Counted from the first letter of the stretch, positions 12,688-29,788 are shown. The stretch is DNA of 36,055 nt from an uncultured bacterium (GCA_964534375.1 CAZHPN010000046.1:1-36055); one strand, 5' to 3'. Made by a program: numbers and translations. Notes: a model not told the origin generated them from the letters alone.

Positions 12688-13149
12688 CTACAATTGCTCG
12701 TACAAGCTGATCATTTCCATCGCCGCCGTCGCGGCCTCGGCGCCCTTGTTGCCCGCTTTCGCCCCCGCGCGCTCAATGGCCTGCTCGATCGTGTCGGTGG
12801 TCAACACGCCGAAAATCACCGGCGTCTTGCCTTCCATCGCCACCTGCGCCACGCCCTTGCTGACCTCGGCCGCGATGTACTCGAAATGGGGCGTGCCGCC
12901 GCGGATGACGCAGCCGAGCGCGAGGATCGCGTCGAACTGGCCGCTCTGCGCCATCCGGCGGGCGACGGCCGGCAATTCGAAGGCGCCGGGCGCCCAGACG
13001 ACCGTGATCTTCTCGCGCTCGCCGTCGTGCCGCACGATCGCATCGACCGCGCCGTCGAGCAATTTGGTCGTGATGAAGCTGTTCCAGCGCGACACGGCGA
13101 CGCCGAACCGGTATCCCGTGGCGACGATTTTCCCCTCAATTACCTTCAT
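12688..13149 (-). CDS. ribH: 6,7-dimethyl-8-ribityllumazine synthase
   Basis: [41 protein letters not shown]. Confidence 0.97.
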
Positions 13150-14383
13150 TTTCCGCCTCTTCGCAGCAGTCGTCGAGATGCGTCAAGTGGTGCCCGAGCT
13201 TTTCCTTTTTCGTACGCATATAATCGATGTTTTCGCGCCGATACGCGACCTCAATCTGTACCCGATCGACGACGTTGAGTCCATAGCCCGACAACCCGTG
13301 GATTTTCTTCGGGTTGTTGGTCAGCAAGCGCAGATCGCGCACGCCCAGCGCGACCAGAATCTGCGCGCCGACGCCGTAATCCCGCAGGTCCGCTTTGAAG
13401 CCGAGCTGCCGGTTGGCCTCGACGGTGTCCAGACCCTGCTCCTGCAAGGCGTACGCTTTGATCTTGTTGCCCAGGCCGATGCCGCGCCCTTCCTGGTTCA
13501 TGTACAGCAGCACGCCGCGGCCTTCCGCCTCAATCATCTTCATCGCCTTGTGCAACTGGTCGCCGCAGTCGCACCGCAACGAACCCAGCACGTCGCCCGT
13601 CAGGCAACTCGAATGCACGCGAACGAGCGGCGGCGGGCCTTTGCTGACGTCCCCTTTGATCAACGCGACGTGCTCCAAACCCTTGGCCTCGACGTCCGAG
13701 ACAAACACCTTCGCCGTGAACTCGCCGCCGAAGTGGGTCGGCAGGCGGGCCTCGGCGACGCACTGCACGTGCAATTCCTGCCGCATGCGGTGCTCGATGA
13801 TCTCGGCGATCGTGCAAATCATCAGGCCGTGTTCGGCCGCGAATTTTTCAAGGTCCGGCATGCGGGCCATCGTGCCGTCTTCCTTCATCACTTCGCAAAT
13901 GACGGCCATCGGCTTCAACCCGGCCAGCTTCATCAGGTCGACGCTGCCTTCGGTCTGGCCGGTGCGCAGCAGCACGCCGCCCTTGGCGGCGCGCAGCGGA
14001 AACACGTGGCCGGGCCGCGCCAAGTCGGCGGGCCGCGTTTTTTCGTCGACGGCAGTCAGGATGGTAGTCGCCCGATCCTGCGCTGAAATGCCGGTCGTGA
14101 CGCCCTGCCGCGCTTCGATGCTGATGGTGAACGCCGTGCCGAAACGGCTGGTGTTGTCGGTGACCATCGGCGGCAAGTGCAACTGATCGGCGCGCTCTTC
14201 GGTCATTGGCAGGCAGACCAAGCCGCGGGCCTTGGTGATCATGAAATTGATAGCCGCCGGCGTCACCAGTTCCGCGGCCATGCACAAGTCGCCTTCGTTT
14301 TCGCGGTCTTCATCGTCGACAAGAATGACCATCTTGCCCTGGCGCAGGGTCTCGATGATCTCGGGCAGTTTCGCCAATTGCAT
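13136..14383 (-). CDS. ribBA: Bifunctional DHBP synthase / GTP cyclohydrolase II, about 415 aa
   Basis: [50 protein letters not shown]; start ATG 14383. Confidence 0.97.
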
Positions 14384-14391
14384 TTTCGGAC

Positions 14392-15045
14392 CTACTTCAA
14401 AAAGCCGTGTTCGGCCAGAAAGCGCTCGTTGAGCGTCGTTTTCTCCGCGCCGGCGGAGCGCGCGGCGAGCAGTTTTTCCACGTATTTGCCGAGCAAATCC
14501 GCCTCCAGATTGACCTTCGATCCGGGCCGCCGTTCGTGCAGCGTCGTCGCCGCCCAGGTGTGCGGGATGATGCCCACTTCGAAGCCCGACTCGTCCACCG
14601 CGTTGAGCGTCAAACTGACGCCGTCGAGCGCGATCGAACCCTTGGGCACGCAATAACGCAGCACGTCCGCCGGCGCCGCGACGCGCAGCCGCACGAAACC
14701 CGCGGTCTCTTTGACCTCGACGACCTCGCCCACGGCGTCGACGTGCCCCGCAACCACGTGTCCGCCGAGGCGATCGCTCAGGCGCAGCGACCGCTCGAGA
14801 TTCAGGCGATCGCCGACGCGCCGCGCGCCCGCCGTGGTGCGCTCGACCTTTTCCGGACTGACCTCGACGTCGAAGACGGCGCCGTCGGCGGCGACGACGG
14901 TCTGGCAATAGCCGTCCAGCGAAATCGACTCGCCGAGCGCCAAGTCGGTCCACGCCGGTTCCGGCAGCACGCCGAAAACCAAGTTCACGCCGCGGCGTCT
15001 CACCGCCGTCAGCCGGCCGACGCGCTCGATCAGGCCAGTAAACAT
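14392..15045 (-). CDS. ribE: Riboflavin synthase (alpha chain)
   Basis: Diagnostic N-terminus [35 protein letters not shown]. Confidence 0.96.
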
Positions 15046-16190
15046 TCGCCGATGTCCTCGAGGTAGCCTTCGACCAGCAAGTCTTGCCCGAGCGTGCGCG
15101 GCCGCAGGTTGCGCACCGCTCGCGCCTCGCGCATGACCTGGGCCAGTTCGCCGCCGACCCACGAGATCGCCCCGGACCCGCCGATGATTTTCGGCGCCAG
15201 CGCCAAGGCCAGCTTGTCGGCCATTCGGCGGCGCAGGAACGACGCGTGTACCCGTCCGCCGCCCTCGACGAGCACGCTGCCGATCTCGCGGGCGTGGAGA
15301 TGACGCAACAGCGCCACTACATCCACATCCCCCGCATCGTCGGCGGGGAATATTTCCACCTTAACGCCAGGTTTGGCAAGGCGGATGCGCGCGGCGGCCG
15401 GCGCGAGCTCCGTCGCGGCGATGAGCGTCTCGCCCGGCAGGTCGCCGGAAGCGACCCGGCACGACGGCAGCGTGCGCAAGCGCGAATCCAAGATGACCCG
15501 CAACGGCTGGCGATACGGCCGATCGTTCGGCAGCCGGCACGTCAAACTGGGATCGTCGGCCAGGACCGTGTTAACGCCGACCAGGATCGCATCGTACACA
15601 TGCCGCAGCCAGTGAACGTATCGCAGGGCCGGCGGGCCGCTGACCCAGCGGCTGTCGCCGTTGGCGGCGGCGATTTTGCCGTCGAGCGTGATCGCCGCCT
15701 TGAGCGTGACGAACGGGCGGCCGGCGCAGATGTAGCGGCAATAGATTTCGTTGAGCGCGATCGCCTCCACGCCGTACGGCCCGATCTCGACCGGAATCCC
15801 CGCGGCCGCAAGGCGGCGGATGCCCGCGCCGTTGACCTTTGGGTTTGGGTCCTGGTGGGCGATGATCACCCGCGCGATGCGCGCTTCGACGATCGCGTCG
15901 GTGCAGGGCGGGGTGCGGCCGAAGTGGTCGCAGGGTTCGAGATTGACGACCATCGTCGCGCCGGCCGGGTCCTCGCCGCGGGCGCGGCAGTCGTCGAGCG
16001 CGGCGCGTTCGGCGTGCGCCTGCCCGACGCGGGCATGATGCCCTTCGCCGATCACGCGGCCATTCTTTAGAATTACGCACCCGACCAGCGGATTGGGGCT
16101 GGTCCAACCCCGGCCGCGGGCCGCCAGGCGCAACGCGCGGCGCATAGCTTGCGCAACCAGTTCGGCCTCGGGCGCGGCGTCATCGTTCAT
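15030..16190 (-). CDS. ribD: Bifunctional diaminohydroxyphosphoribosylaminopyrimidine deaminase / reductase
   Basis: [35 protein letters not shown]. Confidence 0.96.
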
Positions 16191-16635
16191 TCAGAATCTC
16201 TTTGAGTTCCGACATGAAATCGTCGACGTCTTTGAACGAGCGGTAGACGGACGCGAAGCGCACGTAGGCGACGGGGTTCAAATCCCGCAGTTGCTTGACG
16301 ACGTATTCGCCGATCTCGGCGCTGGAGATTTCGCGTTCGCCCGATTCGGAGAAATGCCGCTCGATGTCGGTGACGAGTTCCTCCATCCGGTCGATGGAGA
16401 TGGGCAGTTTCTCGCAGGCGCGGCTGATGCCGTTGAAGATTTTCTGGCGTTCGAATGGCTCGCGGCGGCCGTCCTTTTTCACGACGTGCGGCAGGTTTTC
16501 CTCGATGCGTTCATAGGTCGTGAACCGCCGGGCGCACTTGAGGCATTCGCGCCGGCGGCGGATCACGTTTCCTTCCTTGCGGAAACGCGAATCCATCACT
16601 TTGCTTTGATCGGAACCGCAATACGGACAACGCAT
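16180..16635 (-). CDS. nrdR: Transcriptional repressor NrdR
   Basis: [24 protein letters not shown]-cone [28 protein letters not shown] spacing favours ATG 16635 over 16641. Confidence 0.97.
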
Positions 16636-16651
16636 CGGCATGCTCCTTAAA

Positions 16652-16737
16652 TGGGGAAAGCACGAACAAGAAACAGAGAAGTTGGCCGGTCGCCCCGGGC
16701 CTTTTTCCTTTTTCCTTTTTACTTCTTCCCTTCTTCC
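16652..16737. repeat. Second copy of the AAAGGAA heptamer array (minus strand, overlapping the rpiB stop) with a degenerate pyrimidine counter-arm
   Basis: Minus strand GGAAGAAGGGAAGAAGTAAAAAGGAAAAAGGAAAAAG shares AAGTAAAAAGGAAAAAGGAAAAAG exactly with the array after ppc. Confidence 0.75.
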
Positions 16738-17165
16738 AGGGCGGCGATCTTCGCCACTCGTTTCGCGTGCCGCCCACCGTCAAAAGGCGTCTCCAGAAAG
16801 ATGCGCACGATATCCCGCGCGAGGTCGGGCCCGAGCACGCGCCCGCCGAGCGCCAGCACATTGGCGTCGTTGTGCCGCCGCGCCATCCGCGCCATGTACT
16901 CGTTGGTGCATAGGGCGCACCGCACGCCGGGGACCTTGTTGGCGACGATGCTCATGCCGATGCCCGAGCCGCAGACCAGCACGCCGAACTCGGCCTCGCC
17001 GCCGGCGACCATTTCGGCCGTCAGTTTGCCGAAGTCGGGATAATCGACGCTTTCGTCCGTGTGCGTGCCGAGATCCGTCACCTCGCCGCCGAACTCGACG
17101 ATGTAGTCTTTCAGCATTTCCTTGAGCGCCAACCCGCCATGGTCGCAACCGATGACGATTTTCAT
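16719..17165 (-). CDS. rpiB: Ribose 5-phosphate isomerase B
   Basis: [47 protein letters not shown]. Confidence 0.97.
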
Positions 17166-17195
17166 TTTCTGTTCTCCCGTCGCCAACCCTGGAAT

Positions 17196-17243
17196 TTACC
17201 ACATATTATAGCCCGCAGGCTCCACCAGCGCAATATTTGGTGT
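17196..17243. promoter_or_regulatory. Candidate tandem NrdR boxes overlapping the -10 and -35 elements
   Basis: TTACCACATATTATAG (17196-17211) and GCGCAATATTTGGTGT (17228-17243), 32 bp apart; resemble the acaCwAtATaTwGtgt consensus (9/16 and 12/16). Confidence 0.5.
17205..17233 (-). promoter_or_regulatory. Sigma70-type promoter of the rpiB-nrdR-rib-nusB operon
   Basis: Minus strand TTGCGC (17233-17228), 17-nt spacer, TATAAT (17210-17205), about 40 nt upstream of the rpiB ATG. Confidence 0.75.
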
Positions 17244-17292
17244 AGGTCGCGCGTGATGTCAATTGGTTAACCGCTTGGCGGCGACGCCGCGG

Positions 17293-18156
17293 TCACGCGA
17301 TCCGGATCGCCTCGGCGACCGCCGCGGCGAGACCCGGCGCGCCGGCGGCGGCGCGGGCGAGCACGTCGGCGTGCGTCAGGCGCTCGCGCCGCGAGCCGTC
17401 GTCGCCCTTGTTGACGACCAGCGCCAGCGCCGCGACTTCGAGGCCGGCGTAGCGGGCGTAAAGCGCCTCGGGGACGGTGCTCATGCAGACCGCGTCGGCG
17501 CCGAGCGTGCGGAGCAGGCGGACCTCGGCGGGCGTTTCGTAGTTTGGGCCGGGCATCGCCGCGAGCACGCCGAGGTGCAAGCGCACGTCCAACGGCTCGA
17601 GCGCGCGACGCAACGGCTCGTATAGGTCGGAGCGGTACAACCCGGCGAGATCGACGAACGGCGTGGCCTCGCCCGGGGCGAACGGGTTGGCGTCGCGGGC
17701 CATGGCAAAGAGCGGATTGGGCTGCGTCAGGTTGATGTGGTCGGCAACCAGCAGCAGATCGCCCGGTTCATAGGCGGGATTGATGGCGCCCACCGAACTG
17801 GTCAGCGCCATCAGCCGCGCGCCAAGGCCCGCCGCAAGCTGCACCGGCAGCGTGACCTGCGCGCCCGACGCGCCTTCATACAAATGAAACCGGCCTGCGA
17901 ACACCGCCGTGCGTTTGCCGCCCATGCGGCCGACGACCAGCTTGCCCGGATGGCCCGGAATGATCGTCGGCGGGAAACCGTCGATCGCGGCGTACGGCAG
18001 TTCGCGTTCGACCTCCAACTGCGCGGCGACGCCGGCCAGGCCGCTGCCCGCGAGCACCGCCGCGTCGATCGCGTCGACGCCGTGGCGGGCGAGGCTCGCC
18101 AGAATCCGCTCGCGGTCGGGGTGGTGCAGTGTCAAACGGGGGGCCGCCGGGGTCAT
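17293..18156 (-). CDS. punA: Purine-nucleoside phosphorylase (trimeric PNP/MTAP family)
   Basis: GSGL, PGHPG, GRFHLYEG, DHIN, GPNYETPAE, GADAVCMSTVPE, VVN. Confidence 0.9.
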   Translation of the reverse strand: MTPAAPRLTLHHPDRERILASLARHGVDAIDAAVLAGSGLAGVAAQLEVERELPYAAIDGFPPTIIPGHPGKLVVGRMGGKRTAVFAGRFHLYEGASGAQVTLPVQLAAGLGARLMALTSSVGAINPAYEPGDLLLVADHINLTQPNPLFAMARDANPFAPGEATPFVDLAGLYRSDLYEPLRRALEPLDVRLHLGVLAAMPGPNYETPAEVRLLRTLGADAVCMSTVPEALYARYAGLEVAALALVVNKGDDGSRRERLTHADVLARAAAGAPGLAAAVAEAIRIA

Positions 18157-18175: not shown

Positions 18176-18937
18176 TCATTGAAAGAGGCCGAGCAAGTCG
18201 TCCGCGCGGGCGCCGAATTCGCCGTGCGGGTCGAGCTGCTTGACGTGCTTCCACAATTCCGCCGCCTGCGATTTCTTGCCGATCTTGAAGTAGACCAGCC
18301 CGAGGTCGAGCATCGCGTCGGGGAAAAGCGGCTTCAGTTCCAGCGCCCGTTCGAGCACGCCGCGCGCGTCCTCGAAACGTTCGAGCGCGAGGTAGACCTT
18401 GCCGAGGTTGCCGTAGGCCATGAAATACAGGCGGTCATAGTCGATGCACATGCGCAACGTCTGTTCGGCCTTCAGGTAGTCGCGTTTCTTGTAATAGCAG
18501 TAGCCGAGGGCGTTCAGCGTTTGCGCGCGATTGCGATACAGATCGTTGTCGAGGGCCTTCTTGAATTCCTCGATCGCCGGGTCGAACCGGCCTTGCGTCA
18601 GAAAAAGATGACCCAGATTGTGATGCGCATCGGAGTGGTGGGGATCCAGTTCGATCGCCTTTTGAAAATGCGTAATGGCCTTGTCGAATTTTTCCTTGGA
18701 ATAATAAACGAGGCCCAGCGCGTTTTCGATTTCCGGGTCGAACGGATTGAGAGCGGTCGCCTTCAGCAATTGGTCGAGCGCGCCGGTGGCGTCGCCGCCG
18801 TTCATGTACGCCACGGCCATTTCGAAGTAGCCGGTGGCTTTCTTCTGGTCGTCATCGCTCACCTTGTTCTTCGAGCATGCGGTCGCGAACAGGCCGACGG
18901 CGAGCAGAAAAATCACGGACAGGCGGAACAAACGCAT
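18176..18937 (-). CDS. TPR-repeat lipoprotein, PilF/PilW/Tgl (type IV pilus secretin pilotin)-like
   Basis: Lipobox ATAC followed by successive TPRs (ENALGLVY, HHNLGHLF, LNALGYCY, YGNLGKVY, LDLGLVY). Confidence 0.75.
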   Translation of the reverse strand: MRLFRLSVIFLLAVGLFATACSKNKVSDDDQKKATGYFEMAVAYMNGGDATGALDQLLKATALNPFDPEIENALGLVYYSKEKFDKAITHFQKAIELDPHHSDAHHNLGHLFLTQGRFDPAIEEFKKALDNDLYRNRAQTLNALGYCYYKKRDYLKAEQTLRMCIDYDRLYFMAYGNLGKVYLALERFEDARGVLERALELKPLFPDAMLDLGLVYFKIGKKSQAAELWKHVKQLDPHGEFGARADDLLGLFQ

Positions 18938-18968
18938 CAAAATTGACCCCGGCTAATGCCGGTCGGAA

Positions 18969-18997
18969 CTGTTAGCATCGCCTACGTGGAGTGTCAA
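18969..18997 (-). promoter_or_regulatory. Probable sigma70 promoter for the TPR-PNP genes
   Basis: TTGACA, 17-nt spacer ending in TGC (extended -10), then TAACAG. Confidence 0.5.
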
Positions 18998-19003
18998 GGT
19001 AAC

Positions 19004-19089
19004 GATTGCCAATTGCCGATTGCGGATCGCGGATTTTTTCGGCGCAGACATGCAGCACAATCCGCAATCCACAATCCGAAATCGGCAAT
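19004..19089. repeat. Inverted heptamer arrays (GATTGCS-like x4.5 / CAATCCG-like x4.5)
   Basis: 19004-19035 and 19058-19089; same unit family as the array at 11433; ends 5 nt from the glyA-gcvT stop. Confidence 0.9.
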
Positions 19090-19094
19090 ATTCG

Positions 19095-22000
19095 TTATCG
19101 GCCCGGCCAACGTTTGATGATTTCCGCCGCCACCGGCAGCGGCAGGCGATCGCCGGCTTTCATTTCATCCGCCGCCTTCTTGCCGGCGGCCGACGGCACG
19201 ATCAGGATCGGCCCGAGCTTGCCCTTCTTGATCTGCACGTAGGCCTGACCGATCAACAGGCCTTCGCCGTCGGTCGCGCAACTGGTCACCCAACCGAAGC
19301 ACGCGCCGGTGGCGTCGATGATCGGGTCGCCGGCCTTCAGCGGCCGGGCGCCCTTTGTCGGGACCTTGAAGCGCACGACCTTCATCTCGCGTTTGGCGGT
19401 CTTGGCGCGATACGCCGCTTTGCCGACGAAGAACGGCTTGTGCATCTTGACGAACGTCGCGAAGCCGGCGCTCGTCGGCATGATGTCGTGCGGCCCGGCG
19501 AGTTCGTGGCCGTAGAGCGGCAGCCCGGCCTCCAGACGCAGCGAATCGCGCGCGCCCAAGCCGATTGGTTTCACGCCGAGGTCGGCGCCGGCGGCGAGGA
19601 TCGCGCGCCAAAGGTCCGGCGCTTGGTCGGGGTGGACGAAGATTTCGAAGCTAAGCGGCTCGCCCGTGTAGCCCGTGCGCGAAAGGCCGACGTCGAGGCC
19701 GGCGATCCGCGCGTACATGCAGTGGAACCGTTTGAGCGCTTGCAGCTTCGCGCGGTCGCGTTCGTCGACCAGCTTGAGCAACGTCGGGCGCGACTGCGGG
19801 CCCTGCAGCGCCACGTCGACGCGCCGCTCGTCGCCCCAGCGCGCGTCCTTCAAGTTGCGCAATATCGCCGGCTTGGCGAGACCGCGCTGCGGGGCCGCCT
19901 CGTCGAGCAGCGCGCGTCCTTCGTTCACCGCGCACAGCCACGCCCAATCCTTGGCCTCGTTGGCGGCGTTGACGACGATCAGGTACCGCTGCGCTTCGAA
20001 ACGATAGACGAGCAGGTCGTCGAGCAGATTGGCGGCGTGGTCGAAGAAGTGGTTGTACTGGGATTCGCCGACCGTCAAATCGCCGACGTAATTGCCGCAC
20101 ACGAGATCGACGAAGTTTCGCGCCTGCGGACCGCAAACGTCAAAGCAGCCCATGTGCGTCACGTCGAAAATGCCCGCCGCTTTGCGCACGGCGTTGTGCT
20201 CTTCGATCGTCGATGTATACCGCACGGGCATCTCGTGGCCGGCGAAGGGGACGATTTTCGCGCCGAGCTTCTGATGTTCCGCGAATAGCGTCGTCCGCTT
20301 GAGCGGCTCTTCCTTTTCCTCCCAAACAAAAGGCGTCTTTTTCGGCGCCGGCGCCTTTTTGCACAGCGCCGCCTGGCCGATGAAATACGGCCGCGCCAAG
20401 TCGATGCGGTCGAGCAGTTCGGCGCCCGAGCGGCCGATCAGCGCCGGGTCGGGGTTTGGCAGTTTGGCGTCTTGTTCGCGGCAGAAATCGCAGTCGGCGT
20501 TGAGTTGCTCGACAATCACCGGGCCTTCGATTTTCGCGGTGACGTCGTTCGGCTCAAACAGCGTGTAGCCATCAGCCAGACCGCGCAGCCACCGCAGCAG
20601 CGCCTTGAGATTCGCGACCGGCGCCTTCAGCAGATAGCCGTCGCGGCGCGATTCGCCCTTGACCGGCAACGTGGTGACGACCAGCGGCGAAATGACCTTG
20701 CCGGCGCCATCGAGCGCGACGGTCTCGATCATGTCGCCCTCGCCCAGCTCGCTGAGATCGGCGGCCACGACATCTTGCAGAAATGCGCGCGCTTTGGGGC
20801 CGAGGATCTTGAACAAATGCGAGCCCTCGGCGCGGTCGAGGTACGGGTAATCCGGGTAGCCCGACAGCTTGGGCGCCGTGACCGCCAGCTTGCGGCAGAA
20901 CGCGTCCACGTCTTCGCTGACCGCGTTCAGTACGGCCGGATCGATCTTGCCGCGCGGCAACGGGCGCGTCTCGCCGTCGTACGCGAACGGCTCGACGGCG
21001 ACGAGGATGCGCTGGATCAGCCGCGCCACCTCGCGTGCTTCCGCCTCGCCGGCGCCGCGCTGCGTGATCCACGGCGTGCCCAGTCGCAGGCCGGTCGCCA
21101 GCGGCGTCTCTTTGTCGCCGGGAATCGTGTTCTTGTTGAGGATGATGCCGGCCATTTCGAGAATCTGCGCCGCCGGATCGCCGTACAGCATCGCGCCGTT
21201 TTTCTTCGCGAACGGTTTGAGGTCGATCAGCAACTTGTGCGTATCGGTGCCGCCGTACGCGAGCCGCACGCCGAGTTTCTGGAATTCGTCGACCATCGCC
21301 TTGGCGTTGGCGGCGATCTGCCGCTGCACTTGTTTGAACGCGTCGGTCTGCGCCAGCTTGAACGCCACGGCAAGCGCCGCGATCGTATTCATGTGCGGGC
21401 CGCCCTGCTCGCCGGGGAAGACGGCCGCGTCGATCTTCTTCGCCCTTTCCTCGTCGTGGGTCAGGATCACCGCGCTGCGCGGGCCCATTAGCGTCTTGTG
21501 CGTGGTGAAGGTGACAACGTCGCACCAGTCGATCGGGTTCGGGTAAAGGCCGGCGATCACCAGGCCGGCCGGATGCGCGATGTCGGCCATCAGAATCGCG
21601 CCGACCTCATCGGCGATCGCGCGGAATTTCGCGAAGTCGGGCGCCCACGGATACGACGTGTAGCCGGCGATGATCATCTTCGGCTTGGTTTCCTTCGCCA
21701 GCTTCATGATCGCGTCGTAGTCGAGCAGTTCGGTTTTCGGATCGACGCTGTAGGCGACGATGTTGTAGCGCTTGCCCGTCATGTGGAATTTGCTGCCGTG
21801 CGACAGGTGGCCGCCTTCCATTAGCGACAACCCCATCACCGTGCCGCCCATCGGCACGAACGCCTCGTAGACGGCGATGTTCGCGGCGGCGCCCGAGAGC
21901 GGCTGGACGTTCGCGTAAATCTTCTCTGCCGGCGTCTTCGCTGTGGCGAAACATTCCGCGGCGCGGCGGCGGCACAGCGACTCGATCAAGTTGACGTAGG

Positions 22001-22304
22001 CGTTACCCTTGTAAAACCGGCGGTCGCCGTAACGGCGATACGCGGCCAGGCGCTGCGGCAAGTCGGCCAGATCGGCCGTGCTCATCAGCGTGTTTTCGCT
22101 GGGCGGGTAGCCCTCCGCGTAGAGGTTGGTGAACGAACTGTCGAGAACTTTGCGCACCGGCCACGCGCAAATGCTTTCCGACGGGATGAGGATGATGTGC
22201 CGCGCCTGCCGCTCGTCCTCGCGGGCGATCAGGTCGGCGATCAGCGGGTCGGCGGCCGTGAGGTCGTCGTCAAAAAGAAAGTCGCACGGATTCTTCTTCG
22301 GCAT
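19095..22304 (-). CDS. glyA-gcvT: Serine hydroxymethyltransferase - glycine cleavage T-protein (aminomethyltransferase) fusion, about 1069 aa
   Basis: SHMT: YAEGYP, NVQPLSG, GGHLSHG, ADIAH, TTHKTLMGPR, FPGEQGGP, LNKNTIP. GcvT: KRTTL, FDVTHMG, DDLLVY, NAAN, LQGP, SRTGYTGE, GLGARDSLRLEAGLPLYGHE. One uninterrupted frame with GAGGTGGAG RBS. Confidence 0.95.
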   Translation of the reverse strand: MPKKNPCDFLFDDDLTAADPLIADLIAREDERQARHIILIPSESICAWPVRKVLDSSFTNLYAEGYPPSENTLMSTADLADLPQRLAAYRRYGDRRFYKGNAYVNLIESLCRRRAAECFATAKTPAEKIYANVQPLSGAAANIAVYEAFVPMGGTVMGLSLMEGGHLSHGSKFHMTGKRYNIVAYSVDPKTELLDYDAIMKLAKETKPKMIIAGYTSYPWAPDFAKFRAIADEVGAILMADIAHPAGLVIAGLYPNPIDWCDVVTFTTHKTLMGPRSAVILTHDEERAKKIDAAVFPGEQGGPHMNTIAALAVAFKLAQTDAFKQVQRQIAANAKAMVDEFQKLGVRLAYGGTDTHKLLIDLKPFAKKNGAMLYGDPAAQILEMAGIILNKNTIPGDKETPLATGLRLGTPWITQRGAGEAEAREVARLIQRILVAVEPFAYDGETRPLPRGKIDPAVLNAVSEDVDAFCRKLAVTAPKLSGYPDYPYLDRAEGSHLFKILGPKARAFLQDVVAADLSELGEGDMIETVALDGAGKVISPLVVTTLPVKGESRRDGYLLKAPVANLKALLRWLRGLADGYTLFEPNDVTAKIEGPVIVEQLNADCDFCREQDAKLPNPDPALIGRSGAELLDRIDLARPYFIGQAALCKKAPAPKKTPFVWEEKEEPLKRTTLFAEHQKLGAKIVPFAGHEMPVRYTSTIEEHNAVRKAAGIFDVTHMGCFDVCGPQARNFVDLVCGNYVGDLTVGESQYNHFFDHAANLLDDLLVYRFEAQRYLIVVNAANEAKDWAWLCAVNEGRALLDEAAPQRGLAKPAILRNLKDARWGDERRVDVALQGPQSRPTLLKLVDERDRAKLQALKRFHCMYARIAGLDVGLSRTGYTGEPLSFEIFVHPDQAPDLWRAILAAGADLGVKPIGLGARDSLRLEAGLPLYGHELAGPHDIMPTSAGFATFVKMHKPFFVGKAAYRAKTAKREMKVVRFKVPTKGARPLKAGDPIIDATGACFGWVTSCATDGEGLLIGQAYVQIKKGKLGPILIVPSAAGKKAADEMKAGDRLPLPVAAEIIKRWPGR

Positions 22305-22403
22305 CGCTCCACCTCGCGTGGCGCCCGCAAAATCGGCGCATTTTACAAACAGCGCCGTTCTTAACACCACGACCGGGGAAAGTCAATTTTCAAGGGAACC
22401 CTA

Positions 22404-22478
22404 AACACAGAGGCCACACAGGAAAGCACGAAAGCCCGTCATTCCGAATTTCTCTGTGTCCTCTGCGCCCTCTGTGGT
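22404..22478. repeat. Nonamer array (CTCTGTGTC CTCTGCGCC CTCTGTGGT) with a degenerate inverted ACACAGAG arm
   Basis: 22452-22478 versus about 22404-22421, in the divergent spacer between glyA-gcvT and the GNAT gene. Confidence 0.75.
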
Positions 22479-22557
22479 GAAATCCTGCGGTCCGCTCCAC
22501 GCGCCGGTTTGACACGCCGCGGGCGAGGCGGTATCAACCATGGGCGGAGAAGCCGTC

Positions 22558-23121
22558 ATGAACGAACTGCTCGAAATCAAAACCGCGCGGCTGCTGTTGC
22601 GGCCATTCACTCTGGCCGACGCCGTCGATGTGCGGAAGCTGGCCGGCGACAAAGAGATCGCCGCCAACGCGCTCAGCATCCCCTACCCGTATGAAACGAA
22701 CATGGCCGAGGAATGGATCGCCAAGCACCCCGAATGGCGCGCGCGCGGCGAGCAGATCATCTTCGCGACCGTGCGCGCCGCCGACCGGCTTTTGCTCGGC
22801 GCGGTGGGCCTGACCGTGAGCCAACGCCATCAGAGCGCCGAACTGGGGTACTGGATTGGTCGCGCCTATTGGGGGCAGGGCTACGCCTCCGAAGCCGTGG
22901 CCGCGGCGATGCGGCATGCGTTCGGAGCGCTGGCGATCAATCGCGTCCACGCCGCCTGCCTGACGCGCAATCCGGCGTCGGCGCGCGTGCTGGAAAAGGC
23001 GGGGATGGCCCACGAAGGCACGCGCCGCCAGCACGTGCGGCACTGGGGCGTCTTCGAAGACATCGAAGAATACGGCATCTTGCGGAGCGATTATGAAAAA
23101 ACAAGCCGGCCGCAGGAATAG
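22558..23121 (+). CDS. GNAT family N-acetyltransferase (RimJ/RimL-like)
   Basis: TARLLLRPF, AELGYWIG, WGQGYASEA, NPASARVLEKAGM; GGAGA RBS before ATG 22558 (alternative start 22540). Confidence 0.9.
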   Translation: MNELLEIKTARLLLRPFTLADAVDVRKLAGDKEIAANALSIPYPYETNMAEEWIAKHPEWRARGEQIIFATVRAADRLLLGAVGLTVSQRHQSAELGYWIGRAYWGQGYASEAVAAAMRHAFGALAINRVHAACLTRNPASARVLEKAGMAHEGTRRQHVRHWGVFEDIEEYGILRSDYEKTSRPQE

Positions 23122-24907: not shown

Positions 24908-26161
24908 TCAATGCTTGAAGCTGCGCTGCCCGGTGAAGGCCATCGCGGCGCCGTACTCGTTGCAGGCTTCGATCGCTTGATAGTCGTTGATCGAGCCGCC
25001 GGGTTGAATGACCGCCGCGACGCCTTCGCGCAGACCCACCTCGATGCCGTCGCGGAAAGGGAAAAAAGCATCTGAGACCATCACGCTGCCGGGCAGGCCG
25101 CCCTTCTTTTCTTTGACCTCTTCCTCGATCGCCCGTTGGTGGTCTTCATCGGCCAGCGCGCTGAAGATGACGCCGTGGCGTTCGAAGGCGAAGCGGTCGC
25201 ACAATTTGCGATAGGCCTTGTCGCGAGCGATTTCGGCGACGCCGACGCGGTCCTGTTCGCCCGTGCCGATGCCGACGGTCACGCCGTCTTTGACGTAAAT
25301 CACCGAGTTGGACGTTACGCCCGCCTCGACGACCCAGCCGAACAACATGTCGGCGAATTCCCAATCGGTCGGCGCGCGTTCGACGCGGTAGGTTTTGCCC
25401 TTGTAGACGGTTTCGGCGAGCAGCAGGTCTTCCGGCCGGCGGGCGGCCGGCGAGAACGACACCTGCGCAATGACGCCGCCGTCGATCAGCGATTTGAAGT
25501 CGAGGAAGCGTTCGGGCGCGAATGTCTCCAGCCGCGTCATGTTGCCGATTTTCATGATCCGCAGGTTTTTGCGGCGGGCGAGCGTTTCGACCGCGCCATC
25601 CTCGAATTCCGGCGCGATGACCACCTCGGCGTAGCGCTCGGCGATGGCCTCGGCGGTCGCGACGTCGACGGGCCGGTTGAGCGCGATGCAGCCGCCGAAC
25701 GCGGCGACGTGATCCGCGAGATCGGCCTTGAGATACGCTTCGACGAGTCGGTCGGCGATAGCGACGCCCGACGGGTTGTTGTGCTTCATGATCGCGACGG
25801 CCGGCCGGTCGGCGAGATAACGCAAGATGTTGAGCGCGTTGTCGGCGTCGGTCAGGTTGATCTTGCCGGGATGCTTGCCGAATTGCAGCAACTCGGCGTC
25901 GGACACGAGGTAGCGGCCCGGCGCGATGGTCGTCACTTCGCCGAGCGTCAGGTTGCCGTTGGTCAGGCGATAGAGCGCGGCTTCCTGGCCGGGGTTTTCG
26001 CCGTAGCGCAGGCCGAGCCGCTCGCCGTCGATTTCCCAGGCGACCTTCTCGTATTGCAGCGACGTGCGCTCGCCGTCGTCGTCGATGAACGCGATTTCCA
26101 TGCGCGGCGGAAAGTGGTCGTTCACGATCGTGTGATACATCTTTTTGAGGTCGTCGGGCAT
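24908..26161 (-). CDS. purH: Stand-alone AICAR transformylase domain (PurH C-terminal part)
   Basis: LRYGENPGQ, MKHNNPSGVA, AFGG, EVVIAP, SNSV, SDAFFPFRD, QPGGS, TGQRSFKH. Confidence 0.88.
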   Translation of the reverse strand: MPDDLKKMYHTIVNDHFPPRMEIAFIDDDGERTSLQYEKVAWEIDGERLGLRYGENPGQEAALYRLTNGNLTLGEVTTIAPGRYLVSDAELLQFGKHPGKINLTDADNALNILRYLADRPAVAIMKHNNPSGVAIADRLVEAYLKADLADHVAAFGGCIALNRPVDVATAEAIAERYAEVVIAPEFEDGAVETLARRKNLRIMKIGNMTRLETFAPERFLDFKSLIDGGVIAQVSFSPAARRPEDLLLAETVYKGKTYRVERAPTDWEFADMLFGWVVEAGVTSNSVIYVKDGVTVGIGTGEQDRVGVAEIARDKAYRKLCDRFAFERHGVIFSALADEDHQRAIEEEVKEKKGGLPGSVMVSDAFFPFRDGIEVGLREGVAAVIQPGGSINDYQAIEACNEYGAAMAFTGQRSFKH

Positions 26162-26170
26162 CGGCGGCTC

Positions 26171-26857
26171 CTACCGGTTGCGCAACTTGTAGACGTTCGG
26201 GACGGCTTCCGCGTACTGCTTCGCCAGGTAGGCGGAAATGGCGGCGTCGTAGCTCGCCGTAAGGGCGAACGCCTTGCGCGCGTACGCGAAGCGCTCGGCG
26301 AGGGTGAGGGCGCCGCCCCCGGCGCGCAGTTGGTCGAGCAGATGGGGATAATCGTCGGGATCGACGACGGACGCCACGCGGAGGAAGTTTTTCGCCGAGG
26401 CGCGGACCATCGTCGGCCCGCCGATATCAATATTCGCGCGGGCGTGCTCGACCGTCGCGTCCGGCTGCGCGACCGTCGCCGCGAACGGGTACAGATTGAC
26501 GACGATCAGGTCGAACGGCAAGGCGCCGGTGCGCTGCAAGTCCGCCTGGTGGCTGTCGTTGTACGTCTCGGTGAGCAGGCTCAGATAGACCTTGAAGTCG
26601 AGCGTCTTCACCAGGCCGCCTTGCGTTTCCGGCTGGCCGGTGTAAGCGGAAATCTGGCTCAGATGCGTTTTCGCCCGCTGGCCGAGGATCCCCACGAGTT
26701 GCGCGTGCGTGCCGCCGGTCGAATAAAAATGGATATCCGGAATAATATCGAGCAGGCCCGGAATCAACGTTTCCATGCCGCGCTTGTCCGACACGCTCAC
26801 CAACGCACGCTTGATCGCCACGCGGTCGTCCGCCTCGCGCACAATGTTCACCGCCAT
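26171..26857 (-). CDS. purH: Stand-alone IMP cyclohydrolase (MGS-like) domain (PurH N-terminal part)
   Basis: ALVSVSDK, STGGT, GGLVKTL, VVNLYPF, NIDIGGPTMVRASAKNF, KAFALTASYD. Confidence 0.88.
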   Translation of the reverse strand: MAVNIVREADDRVAIKRALVSVSDKRGMETLIPGLLDIIPDIHFYSTGGTHAQLVGILGQRAKTHLSQISAYTGQPETQGGLVKTLDFKVYLSLLTETYNDSHQADLQRTGALPFDLIVVNLYPFAATVAQPDATVEHARANIDIGGPTMVRASAKNFLRVASVVDPDDYPHLLDQLRAGGGALTLAERFAYARKAFALTASYDAAISAYLAKQYAEAVPNVYKLRNR

Positions 26858-26873: not shown

Positions 26874-27716
26874 TCAGCCGCCGTAAATCTTCGTCAGTTC
26901 GCTGTCCTCGATGCCGAACGAATGCTCCGGCCCCGGGTATTTCCGCGCCTTCACCTCGTCGATGTACTGCTGCACCGCGAGCCGAATCGCCGGCCCCAAT
27001 TGCGCGAATTTCTTCAAAAACTTCGGCGAGAAGCTCTCGTTGAAGCCGAGCATGTCGTGGAGCACAAGCACCTGGCCGTCGCAATGCGGCCCCGCGCCGA
27101 TGCCGATCACCGGAATGTCGATTGCCGCCGCGACCTTCGCCGCCACACGGTCGGGCACGAGTTCCAGCACCAGCATCCACGCGCCGGCCGTCGCGATCTC
27201 GCGCGCCTCGTCGAGGATTTTCTGCGCCGAATCGGCCGTGCGGCCCTGGACGCGATGGCCGCCGACCATGTCCGCCGTCTGCGGCAGCAGGCCGAGGTGG
27301 CCGACCACCGGCACGCCGGCCTCGACCAGCGCGCGGATGACGCCGATCATCTTGCCGCCGCCTTCGAGCTTGACCGCGTCGCAACCGCCTTCTTTCAAGA
27401 ACCGCACGCCGTTGGCGATCGCCTGCTCGGGCGAAATGTTGTAACTGCCGAACGGCATGTCGCCGATCAGCATCGCGTGACGTACGCCGCGCCGCACCGC
27501 CCGGACGAGCACGAGCATCTCGTCCATCGTCACGGGCACGGTGTCGTCGTAGCCGAGCACGACGTTCGCGGCGCTGTCGCCGACGAGAATCGTGTCGACG
27601 CCGGTCTCGTCGAGCAGCCGCGCCATGGGGAAGTCGTAGCAGGTGAGCATGGTGATCGGCTCGCCCGCGGCCTTCTTCTTGCGCAACGCCAGAAGGTCGA
27701 ATTTTTTTTGCGCCAT
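26874..27716 (-). CDS. panB: 3-methyl-2-oxobutanoate hydroxymethyltransferase
   Basis: MLTCYD, ILVGDS, DMPFGSY, VKLEGG, GHLGLLPQ, IGIGAG..CDGQVLV.HDMLG. Confidence 0.97.
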   Translation of the reverse strand: MAQKKFDLLALRKKKAAGEPITMLTCYDFPMARLLDETGVDTILVGDSAANVVLGYDDTVPVTMDEMLVLVRAVRRGVRHAMLIGDMPFGSYNISPEQAIANGVRFLKEGGCDAVKLEGGGKMIGVIRALVEAGVPVVGHLGLLPQTADMVGGHRVQGRTADSAQKILDEAREIATAGAWMLVLELVPDRVAAKVAAAIDIPVIGIGAGPHCDGQVLVLHDMLGFNESFSPKFLKKFAQLGPAIRLAVQQYIDEVKARKYPGPEHSFGIEDSELTKIYGG

Positions 27717-27859
27717 CGGTTCGCCTCGCAACGCCCGTGGAAGGCGACGCCGACCCGCCGGGCCGCGGCCCGCCGGGCGTTCCGGACGCCGGCTTCTGGT
27801 TTGGTTGGGACCCGCAATCGCAGAGCCGACTTTAACCGGAAACATTTCGGCAACGCAAG

Positions 27860-28666
27860 TCAGTCGCCGGCGGCCGGGTCCCGTTTGTTCTTTTCGAGCG
27901 ATGCGTAGGCGTTGTGATTGTGAATGGATTCGAAGTTCTCGGCCTCGATGCTGTACCAGGTGATGTCCGGATGCGCGTCGAGGCGCTGGGCGATGTTGCG
28001 CACCACGTCTTCGACGAACACGGGGTTGGCGTAGGCGCGCTCGGTGACGAACTTTTCGTCCTCGCGCTTGAGCAGCGAGTAGACGGCGCTCGACGCCGAT
28101 TGCTCGGCGATGTCGACAATCTCTTCGATCCAGACCATGCCGCGGAAGCGGAAACCGATGGTCGCCACACCGCGCTGGTTGTGCGCGCCAACGTCGCTGA
28201 TTTCCTTGGAGCAGGGGCAGAGCGTCGACACCGGCGTCGTCACGTAGATGACCATATCCTGCCGCTCGTGCTGCAGCGAGCCGACAATCCGGCAGCGGTA
28301 TTCCATCAGCCCGCGCGCTTTGGAAACGGGCGCTTCCTTCTCGACGAAATAGGGAAACTCGACTTCGACGTGCGCCGATTCCGCTTCGAGCCTCTCGCGA
28401 ATCGCCTGGAGCATTTCGAACAGGCCGTCGACTGATATCTCGCCGCGCCGGTCGTTGAGCACCTCGACGAAGCGGCTCATGTGCGCGCCCTTGAAGCCGT
28501 GCGGCAGGTTCACGTACATGTTGAACGAGCCGACCGTATGCTGTTCTCCCTTCGCCCGGTCGAGCAGCCGGATCGGGTAGCGGATGTCCTTTACGCCCAC
28601 TTTATCAATGGGGATATTGCGGTCGTCGGGCCGGTTTGCGACGTCGGGCAGGTCGTTCTTGTTCAT
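27860..28666 (-). CDS. folE2: GTP cyclohydrolase IB (FolE2)
   Basis: IDKVGVK, KGAHMSRF, LCPCSKEIS..GAHNQR, LKREDEK.VTE.AY.NP.FVED, ENFESIHNHNA; ATGA overlap with folD. Confidence 0.96.
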   Translation of the reverse strand: MNKNDLPDVANRPDDRNIPIDKVGVKDIRYPIRLLDRAKGEQHTVGSFNMYVNLPHGFKGAHMSRFVEVLNDRRGEISVDGLFEMLQAIRERLEAESAHVEVEFPYFVEKEAPVSKARGLMEYRCRIVGSLQHERQDMVIYVTTPVSTLCPCSKEISDVGAHNQRGVATIGFRFRGMVWIEEIVDIAEQSASSAVYSLLKREDEKFVTERAYANPVFVEDVVRNIAQRLDAHPDITWYSIEAENFESIHNHNAYASLEKNKRDPAAGD

Positions 28667-29553
28667 GCCCCGCCTCGCGCCCGCCGCTCGGCCGCGGCCA
28701 GCGTGTTTTTCATCAGCATCGTGATCGTCATCGGGCCGACGCCGCCGGGCACGGGCGTGATCTTGCCGGCGACGGCGAGGGCGGCTTCGAAATCGACGTC
28801 GCCGACCAGTTTCGCCTTGCCGCTCGCGGTCGTGCCGATGCGGTTGACGCCGACGTCGATGACCGTCGCGCCGGGGCGGATCATGTCGGCGGTGATCGCC
28901 TTGGGGCGGCCGGCGGCGACGATCAAGATCTCGGCGCGGCGGGTGTGCGCCGCGAGGTCGCGCGTTCGGGTGTGGCAGATGGTGACGGTGGCGTCGGCGT
29001 GCGGGGCCTTCTGCGCGAGCAGCACGGCGACCGGCTTGCCGACGAGGTTCGAACGGCCAACCACGACCACGTCGGCGCCGGCGATGGGCGTGCCGGCGCG
29101 CACGAGCATTTCCTGGATGCCGGCCGGCGTGCAAGGCGGGAAAATCGCCTGGCCGAGCAGCAACCGGCCGTGGTTGATCGGGTGGACGCCGTCGACATCT
29201 TTGTCCGGGTCGATGGCGCAGATCACCTCGCGCTCGTCGAGCGGCTTGGGCAAGGGCAACTGGACGAGAATGCCATGTACCGCGTCGTCAGCATTGAACG
29301 CGCGTACGAGCGCAATCAGTTCGGCTTGCGGTACGTCCGCCGGCAGGTGGCGCTGGAACGAATTCATGCCAAGTTCGACGCAGGTGCGGTTTTTGCCGGC
29401 GACATACGAAACCGAACCGGGGTCGTCGCCAACCAGGATCGTCGCCAATCCGGGGGCGAAGCCGCGTGCGGCCTTGAAGCGGGCGATTGCCGCGGCCAGT
29501 TCGGCGCGGATGGCGGCCGCGATTTCCTTGCCGCTAATGATCTGGGCGGTCAT
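28663..29553 (-). CDS. folD: Methylene-THF dehydrogenase / methenyl-THF cyclohydrolase
   Basis: YVAGK, GILVQLPLP, KDVDG, PCTP, GRSNLVGKP, IDVG.N, TPVPGGVGPMT; GGAGG RBS. Confidence 0.97.
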   Translation of the reverse strand: MTAQIISGKEIAAAIRAELAAAIARFKAARGFAPGLATILVGDDPGSVSYVAGKNRTCVELGMNSFQRHLPADVPQAELIALVRAFNADDAVHGILVQLPLPKPLDEREVICAIDPDKDVDGVHPINHGRLLLGQAIFPPCTPAGIQEMLVRAGTPIAGADVVVVGRSNLVGKPVAVLLAQKAPHADATVTICHTRTRDLAAHTRRAEILIVAAGRPKAITADMIRPGATVIDVGVNRIGTTASGKAKLVGDVDFEAALAVAGKITPVPGGVGPMTITMLMKNTLAAAERRARGGA

Positions 29554-29788
29554 AACCTGCCTCCTGGTTCGGACTAACGGCGATCGAGCGAGGCTGCCGT
29601 ATACCACGAAAAATCGCGTGGCTCAAAGGCGGCCGGAAGCTTTTTCCGCGGTTTTCGGCCGCGCAACCTTGCAAACGCCCCGAAAAGATTTATTTAATAG
29701 ATGAAAGTCATTGAAAAAATCCCGGAACGTGTGCTTCCGAGCAAGAATTAGCCGCTGGGCGACCATGTTGTAATGAGGAGAAGTGCCA

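Follow-up and report, generated by a model that had tools for sequence, protein, structure and literature searches.

Does one gene of an uncultured bacterium encode, in a single polypeptide, both serine hydroxymethyltransferase (SHMT) and the T-protein of the glycine cleavage system (GcvT), and if so, what might the union achieve? The question is raised by a 36,055-nucleotide stretch of DNA (GCA_964534375.1, CAZHPN010000046.1:1-36055; "the window" refers to this whole stretch), for which an original prediction, made from the sequence alone, had proposed an SHMT-GcvT fusion that channels 5,10-methylene-tetrahydrofolate (methylene-THF) between its two halves. One-carbon (C1) units have two principal entries into folate metabolism, namely SHMT and the glycine cleavage system. 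We identified a single open reading frame (ORF) of 1069 amino acids (aa) at 19095..22304, including the stop codon, read from an ATG at 22304. This is the ORF of the original prediction, which had not stated the strand (minus). We predict, with a probability of roughly 0.8, that the product is bifunctional, its two outer modules both being active enzymes.

One continuous gene

The SHMT-T'-GcvT coding sequence (19095..22304, minus strand) was assigned by ORF calling, by matches to Pfam and NCBIfam families and by in-frame, full-length matches in relatives. The protein is 64% identical to a homologue in a metagenome-assembled genome (MAG) of Candidatus Lernaella stagnicola, and the organism probably belongs to the Lernaellota. 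The searched passages of the paper describing that phylum mention neither glycine cleavage nor SHMT. The fusion is present in all seven other genomes of the same family, and full-length matches in a single frame were found in nine genomes of the class (the fusion's own genome, G000, included), eight of them without an internal stop. In Logan contigs from three DNA runs of wetland metagenomes, the interval 19000-22400 is covered free of insertions, deletions and joints, and both domain junctions are bridged by single contigs (e.g., X1 at 20249-21138 and X2 at 20298-21419); one of the three runs may be the sample of origin, so that this support is not fully independent. All of the best 120 database matches carry both PF00464 and PF01571, at lengths of 1057-1250 aa.

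An artefact, in which a frameshift, misassembly or missed stop joined neighbouring genes, would find some footing in one TGA within the match in genome G006, one TAA within that in G002, three further genomes in which the locus is split by contig ends, and several database entries of 500-545 aa with unrelated tails after the SHMT part. Against it stand the single-frame matches in the nine genomes, the 120 database matches, the contigs bridging the junctions, and 14 complete fusion loci from several phyla in a scan of GTDB (described below). A stop or frameshift between the domains, which the original prediction had named as fatal to itself, was looked for: there is none in the fusion, relatives carry it in frame, and the metagenome contigs are free of indels. 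As far as sequence data allow, the artefact reading is refuted, with a vanishingly small chance of being right, and the single-polypeptide fusion is judged to be real.

Conservation was assessed in an alignment of the fusion protein with 24 members 46-71% identical to it. Invariant in all 25 sequences are Y62, E64, Y98, H166, D241, H244, H269, K270, R276, N392, R407, D763, N779, G881, E882 and R919. The motifs on which the original prediction relied are all present, namely TTHKT (with K270), DDLLVY (with D762 and D763), TGYTGE (877-882) and ARDSLRLEAG, and both catalytic sets are intact in every checked residue of the two outer modules, in line with its claim of an intact SHMT lysine motif and an intact T-protein.

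The SHMT module

The SHMT module comprises aa 1-475 (20880..22304, minus strand), as delimited by PF00464, alignment to the solved structures 7V3D and 1KKJ, Foldseek and the secondary structure of an AlphaFold2 (AF2) model. It scores 403.6 bits against PF00464 (cut-off 27) and 434.2 bits against the NCBIfam SHMT model NF000586 (cut-off 335). PF00464 covers aa 92-430, plus approximately aa 16-68 as mapped from a DNA match at 22101-22259; likewise, the alignment to the solved enzymes runs from aa 95 to ~440, with a separate N-terminal piece at aa 17-67. The top Foldseek ranks for the model (mean predicted local distance difference test, pLDDT, 81.9) are SHMT chains, with target TM scores of 0.87-0.90 and 39-43% identity. 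The module is modelled as a pyridoxal 5'-phosphate (PLP) enzyme of fold-type I with a family-specific C-terminal hairpin and helix (aa 437-475), which are folded in the AF2 model.

The PLP-binding lysine of TTHKT is K270 (codon at 21495..21497, minus strand), which aligns to K226 of Bacillus stearothermophilus SHMT. Residues Y51, E53, Y61, H122, D197, H200, K226 and R357 of that enzyme correspond to Y62, E64, Y98, H166, D241, H244, K270 and R407 of the fusion, all among the invariant positions, and we take the aligned residues to have the same catalytic and binding roles. Compared with bacterial GlyA (Enterococcus faecium 7V3D, B. stearothermophilus 1KKJ and Escherichia coli 1DFO), the fold, the PLP lysine in TTHKT and the active-site residues are kept, whereas the fusion has two insertions (27 aa following YAEGYP and 7 aa around aa 122-128) as well as the C-terminal hairpin and helix, and continues covalently for ~590 more residues. 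The 27-aa insertion (aa 68-94; 22023..22103, minus strand) was placed by the break in the match to 7V3D and 1KKJ between aa 67 and aa 95. It does not occur in the aligned solved SHMTs, and its terminal motif, RRY.DRRFYKG, is invariant. The invariant columns of the region are L86, R90, R91, Y92 and D94-G100, and the insertion adjoins the active-site Tyr98.

The GcvT module

A complete GcvT module, consisting of a folate-binding domain and a C-terminal barrel, was identified at aa 669-1069 (19098..20300, minus strand) by PF01571, TIGR00528 and alignments to entries of the PDB. It matches PF01571 (GCV_T) over aa 674-947 with 266.4 bits (cut-off 25.6) and the gcvT equivalog model TIGR00528 over aa 668-1036 with 255.2 bits (cut-off 235.85), reaching model position 343 of 362. 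Alignments run end to end with the T-proteins of Bacillus subtilis (1YX2, E 7.6e-52), Thermotoga maritima (1WOO, 4e-51) and E. coli (1VLO). The pLDDT of the module is mostly 86-97.

The codon of D763, the second Asp of LLDDLLVY, lies at 20016..20018 (minus strand). This residue aligns to Asp96 of T. maritima 1WOO and presumably shares its catalytic role. D763, N779, G881, E882 and R919, which include positions of the folate-site motifs NAAN, TGYTGE and GLGARD, are all in the invariant set. The comparison with known T-proteins (1YX2, 1WOO, 1VLO and 3A8I) shows that the fusion keeps TGYTGE, GLGARDSLRLEAG and the counterpart of T. maritima D96, and that its lineage has the genes for the partners (gcvH, gcvPA, gcvPB and lpdA). 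In contrast, a known T-protein is a free protein of ~365 aa, whereas here it is fused behind a degenerate paralogue (T'), carries a ~25-aa insertion (aa 806-831) after NAAN and leaves the Pfam model of the barrel silent. The predicted architecture of SHMT, GCV_T and GCV_T_C was therefore recovered in its first two parts, the third being undetected at E <= 0.01.

A degenerate T-protein copy between the enzymes

The picture of two joined enzymes proved incomplete, as it overlooked a third element, a partial and degenerate GCV_T copy lying between them. The middle region (aa 476-668; 20301..20879, minus strand) consists of this remnant, T', and linkers, and is recognised by a partial PF01571 match, by BLASTP similarity to the protein's own T domain and by a pLDDT of ~75-92. 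T' (approximately aa 497-600) matches positions 51-135 of the PF01571 profile (E 8.2e-8; DNA 20538-20813) and is 25.7% identical to the T domain of the same protein over 144 aa (E 1.2e-5). The region has a conserved motif, WLRGLADGY...K.EGP.

In all three of the long homologues tested (~1220 aa), the middle is occupied by a complete second T-protein folate domain, whose identity to the active T domain is 36-38% (E 1e-60 to 6e-67). In these long forms TGYTGE and GLGARD are altered already, and in the fusion studied here the segments that would bear them are absent from T'. Thus, T' appears to be a degenerate, shrunken copy of the T-protein folate domain. Since the long homologues hold a complete but motif-altered copy, the ancestral layout was SHMT-T'-T, and T' has been reduced in this lineage by internal deletions to a folded remnant.

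One further protein, P0183 (4051 aa), resembles the short WLRGLADGY-like stretch of this middle region at eight separate places, with 48% identity over 38 residues, and was matched by no module profile of the three.

Sole copies and partners in glycine cleavage

The genome that carries the fusion is 94.43% complete, and a profile search of its contigs identified no SHMT or GCV_T match outside the fusion ORF. The five relatives checked (92-98% complete) also confine their GCV_T matches to the fusion, and in four of them it is the sole SHMT over the cut-off. In each of the five, a canonical gcvH (144-155 bits) immediately precedes gcvPA, and the vicinity lacks gcvT; the four family relatives in which the fusion is the only SHMT and the only GCV_T thus keep a gcvH-gcvPA-gcvPB operon that lacks gcvT. 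In G000, contig C33 begins inside gcvPA and continues with gcvPB, in keeping with the earlier statement that gcvH and gcvP lie outside the window. Lipoamide dehydrogenase (lpdA) is over the cut-off in all eight family genomes, G000 included. Because the fusion is the only SHMT and the only GCV_T in G000 and in four relatives, it most likely supplies both activities, and it is most likely the only candidate T-protein for an otherwise apparently complete glycine cleavage system.

The original prediction had pointed to gcvH, gcvP, the L-protein gene and fhs as genes to locate. We identified gcvPA, gcvPB and lpdA; a canonical gcvH and the gene for formate-THF ligase (PF01268, Fhs/FTHFS) were not found in the 94.43%-complete genome. 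The suggested role in the reductive glycine pathway consequently finds no support there. SerA of the phosphoserine pathway is encoded in 8/8 family genomes and the serine dehydratase alpha chain in 5/8, including G000, so that flow from serine to glycine and from glycine through serine to pyruvate are both possible.

Five GcvH-like genes occur in G000, at L012 (contig C138, 4202-8721) and L013 (contig C6, 8364-9599), with GCV_H scores of 46-74 bits. Their ORFs as called begin 50-85 residues before the domain, three of them flank genes for a 4Fe-4S dicluster (Fer4_11) protein and an NrfD-like membrane protein, and similar paralogues (~67-95 bits) are found in relatives. They look like genes for lipoyl- or biotinyl-type carriers of another, possibly sulfur- or quinone-linked, system, and none is a canonical gcvH.

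Predicted function and alternatives

We propose that the N-terminal module is the sole SHMT of the organism, interconverting serine plus THF with glycine plus methylene-THF. SHMTs dimerise, and the module presumably does so here, which would give a particle with two T modules. The C-terminal module would act as the sole T-protein, taking the aminomethyl group from the lipoyl arm of a separate H-protein to yield methylene-THF and ammonia; with the P (gcvPA/gcvPB), L and H proteins encoded elsewhere, it would work with free lipoyl-H-protein. T' is predicted to be catalytically dead and is most likely a folded spacer that fixes the arrangement of the two enzymes. The fusion would set a 1:1 ratio and place two methylene-THF sites side by side, such that in the conversion of two glycines to serine, CO2 and NH3, or the reverse, folate could be loaded at one site and unloaded at the other.

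Several observations weigh against this reading. The score against the GcvT subfamily model NF001567 (289.4 bits) is below its cut-off of 300, that against NF010094 (310.9 bits) is below 735, and the C-terminal barrel family GCV_T_C (PF08669) was not detected in the fusion protein at E <= 0.01; the AF2 model has beta strands at the position of the barrel, and PF08669 is present in some homologues. By the tests run, each half seems an ordinary member of its family, save for the undetected Pfam barrel and the sub-threshold NCBIfam model. A canonical gcvH was not found in the G000 assembly, where the matches are the five weak ones in other contexts. Since the contig breaks inside gcvPA and gcvH lies upstream of gcvPA in the relatives, we infer that the gene is most likely in unassembled DNA before C33. 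With the genome 94.43% complete, a second glyA or gcvT may sit in its unassembled part. Some class-level relatives hold T'-T proteins without the SHMT catalytic domain, so fusion is not obligatory for T-protein function. The pLDDT falls below 50 at aa 59-73 and 87-103, in the N-terminal region and 27-aa insertion of the SHMT module; low confidence in this monomer model is found mainly at the SHMT N-terminus, the insertion and a few loops, and in SHMTs the corresponding regions lie at the dimer interface.

Docking of the SHMT module (aa 41-475) against T'-T (aa 497-1061) gave 0.57, compared with 0.00 for the best of three controls, which is weak support. The runs concur in at least 97% of contacts, and the partner has a pLDDT of at least 87. 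The score itself favours a fixed arrangement, and its weakness by the tool's own calibration counts against: of the 157 solved complexes used, 116 pass the mark, as do 2 of the 215 mismatched pairs, and passing scores of 0.60 or below were obtained by only 18 of the 157 and by both passing mismatches. The result hints at a defined arrangement of the modules and shows no channel.

Could the C-terminal module instead be a folate-dependent C1 acceptor for some other donor, as in DmdA, trimethylamine N-oxide (TMAO) demethylase and the dimethylglycine and sarcosine oxidases, rather than a T-protein? It does match the models of TMAO demethylase (NF053776, 162.7 bits), soxA (120.9 bits) and DmdA (55 bits), but these scores are far below the respective cut-offs of 1100, 1164 and 410, whereas TIGR00528 is above its own; its best solved matches are the T-proteins 1YX2 and 1WOO, and genomes that retain gcvH-gcvPA-gcvPB have no other GCV_T. 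We regard this alternative as very unlikely. The sole-copy status of each module in G000 and four family relatives, together with the invariance of all checked catalytic and binding residues, argues equally against one half being an inactive pseudoenzyme kept for regulation or scaffolding. That domains of this family can decay is shown by T' itself, and some T'-T proteins of relatives retain only a C-terminal piece of SHMT; even so, we would give a pseudoenzyme in the window's protein little credence. A bifunctional enzyme with two active outer modules remains the preferred reading.

Whether such an enzyme would also channel its intermediate, as the original prediction proposed, is a separate matter. 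In true channelling, methylene-THF would go from the T site to the SHMT site, or the other way, kept apart from the bulk pool, through a tunnel or on an anchored polyglutamylated folate, perhaps held on T', with the pterin head swinging from one site to the other. This is consistent with the presence of two folate sites in one chain, with the descent of T' from a folate-binding domain that is still complete in the long homologues, with a predicted TM score (pTM) of 0.74 for the full-length model and with the docking score. It also has a parallel in dimethylglycine oxidase and sarcosine oxidase, where a C1 intermediate is channelled to the GcvT-like domain. Yet T' has lost the segments of TGYTGE and GLGARD in this protein, which makes a role as folate tether doubtful, and SerA throughout the family suggests that the main flux may run from serine to glycine, with no handover of folate between the sites. 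Channelling could in any case operate only between two glycines and serine, the one conversion in which the folate released at one site is what the other site consumes. Serine breakdown has THF loaded at both sites, and reductive synthesis of glycine and serine has methylene-THF unloaded at both. The safe reading is thus that the fusion provides fixed stoichiometry and proximity. We consider true channelling possible but improbable; the docking lends it weak support, and the channel itself stays conjectural.

A more elaborate version is somewhat less probable again. In it, the dimer would be a glycine-to-serine machine in which a bound polyglutamylated folate shuttles between T and SHMT as a quasi-prosthetic swinging arm, with T' as scaffold or tether. 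If this is true, nature would here have solved the long-debated coupling of glycine cleavage to SHMT covalently, for the first time known.

Comparison with known systems

The full-length AF2 model has a mean pLDDT of 81.9, as above; it was built on a cluster representative that differs from the window's protein by five substitutions. Weaker PDB matches (E 4e-22 to 3e-13) were to dimethylglycine oxidase (1PJ5), the sarcosine oxidase alpha subunit (2GAG), dimethylglycine dehydrogenase (4P9S) and TMAO demethylase (9Q59), which likewise place a C1-producing domain ahead of a folate domain of the GcvT family. In the oxidases the C1 intermediate reaches the folate site via an internal cavity. In those enzymes the upstream partner is a flavoenzyme or metalloenzyme and the intermediate an iminium or formaldehyde, whereas in the fusion the upstream enzyme is itself folate-dependent, and the folate cofactor could be shared. 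Its T module, unlike theirs, looks like a genuine H-protein-dependent T-protein.

Two folate sites in one protein also occur in DHFR-TS, FolD and FTCD. We know of no bifunctional folate enzyme that pairs SHMT with a T-protein. The metabolic logic of two glycines yielding serine, with methylene-THF shared, is that of photorespiration in plant mitochondria, where the coupling of glycine decarboxylase to SHMT is non-covalent and between separate proteins. Whether methylene-THF is handed over directly has been debated for plant mitochondria without a clean experimental system; the fusion, which has the two sites in one chain, would offer such a system.

Distribution, annotation and origin

To describe the wider distribution we use a scan of GTDB with one genome per species and a sample of 600 stretches, in which 80 loci were kept. 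At least 17 of these reach past the SHMT module and are fusions, 14 of them complete (to residue 1066 or beyond) and three cut by a contig end; all are from MAGs. They include 12 from Chloroflexota, two from Planctomycetota and one each from Myxococcota and Bipolaricaulota. The fusion family thus appears to be widespread in uncultured Chloroflexota. With the middle region as query, 163 cluster representatives were identified at E <= 0.001, 46 of them at E <= 1e-10; among the best 150 of the 163, 60 are at least 1043 aa long and match all three modules.

Short matches to the SHMT module are mostly labelled partial or have unrelated tails, suggestive of frameshifts, although a few of 465-502 aa may be true stand-alone proteins. 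In a quick tree, 33 fused and 26 stand-alone SHMT domains were split by a single branch (SH-like approximate likelihood ratio test, SH-aLRT, 100), which fits one origin of the fused SHMT domains, as far as a small stand-alone sample, with three rows containing a stop, permits.

Among class-level relatives, five do not have the full fusion. In four of them the matching protein aligns only after residue 371-499 has been reached, and in the fifth the match is confined to the T module. Three of the T'-T ORFs, all on the minus strand, contain T' and a full GcvT but no SHMT Pfam match. They are in G011 (L025, 1707-5039; 1110 aa), G016 (L026, 1674-3863; 729 aa) and G010 (L027, 1036-3327; 763 aa), with lengths counted from the first start codon and starts possibly over-called. 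The protein of G016 aligns from fusion residue 371, i.e., from the small C-terminal SHMT domain, and all three genomes carry a separate, distant SHMT (~31% identity). Such proteins may have arisen by secondary loss of the SHMT catalytic domain. Further examples occur in the set of cluster representatives, where many are possibly fragments.

The original prediction described similar long fusions of some anaerobes as annotated only as GcvT. Relatives of the fusion are indeed mainly named GcvT or T protein, but several are named glycine hydroxymethyltransferase. Its author knew of no biochemical study, and none of the fusion was found in the full-text literature searched (subscription journals lay outside that scope). 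Real and widespread, the fusion has been mis-annotated and has gone unstudied; joined pathway neighbours of this kind are a frequent find in genomics. Thousands of such proteins are apparently labelled with one of the two activities only, so that glyA or gcvT may be falsely reported absent when metabolism is reconstructed for Chloroflexota and other uncultured lineages. The natural series, in which the middle domain is complete, shrunken or nearly lost and the SHMT catalytic domain can be missing, could show what proximity buys, and a compact enzyme of this kind could interest engineers of the serine and glycine steps in synthetic C1 assimilation.

DNA signals and gene neighbourhood

ORF calling gave a longest frame at 19095..22370 (minus strand; 1091 aa) with an upstream GTG start. 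We place the start at the ATG at 22304 because it is preceded by the Shine-Dalgarno-like GAGGTGGAG and because the N-termini of homologues align there; the GTG at 22370 was dropped on the same grounds. The site, read from the sequence, is at 22307..22315 (minus strand), two nucleotides (CG, 22305-22306) before the ATG. The plus strand of 19095-22304 has many stops and no open frame.

No riboswitch or leader was matched by Rfam at gathering thresholds in the whole window. The sole Rfam match in 22200-22700, to CcsR1, scores 16.5 bits against a gathering score of 65.3 and was rejected as chance level. A promoter scan of 18800-22700 returned no sites; terminator-like sites in the same interval number eight, compared with 4.7 +/- 2.1 in shuffled sequences, and are not informative. 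In one metatranscriptome run, a lone 241-nucleotide contig covers 19000-19233 only, which does not demonstrate transcription of the fusion gene.

Upstream of the fusion are folD (28663-29607), folE2 (in the region 27860-28651) and panB (26874-27845), all on the minus strand, followed by a split purH. The row folD-folE2-panB (26874-29607) upstream of purH and the fusion is a folate and one-carbon neighbourhood. Downstream and on the same strand (13136-18156) are genes for a TPR protein and a PNP_UDP_1 phosphorylase, rpiB, nrdR, ribD and ribBA. A glyA beside nrdR-ribD is a common bacterial arrangement, and the fusion may occupy the old glyA position.

The purH locus (24908-26857, minus strand) is split into two in-frame genes, one for the IMP-cyclohydrolase part (228 aa) and one for the AICAR-transformylase part (417 aa). 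At the break (26161-26173), which falls within the AICARFT_IMPCHas domain (profile 1-69 and 73-311), a TAG is followed by an AGGAG-like site and an ATG. Its recurrence at the same point in family relatives, with separate frames in G003, G005 and G002, suggests that the gene underwent natural fission with translational coupling, only a few kb away from a gene fusion. A second AICARFT paralogue was identified on contig C15.

Outside the lineage, no conserved neighbourhood was recognised: seven fusion loci from other phyla have flanks without common genes and without glycine-cleavage genes. In a single case, that of a Myxococcota MAG, a gene for CdhD, the delta subunit of CO dehydrogenase/acetyl-CoA synthase, lies just upstream of the fusion (L035, 1653-3128, minus strand).

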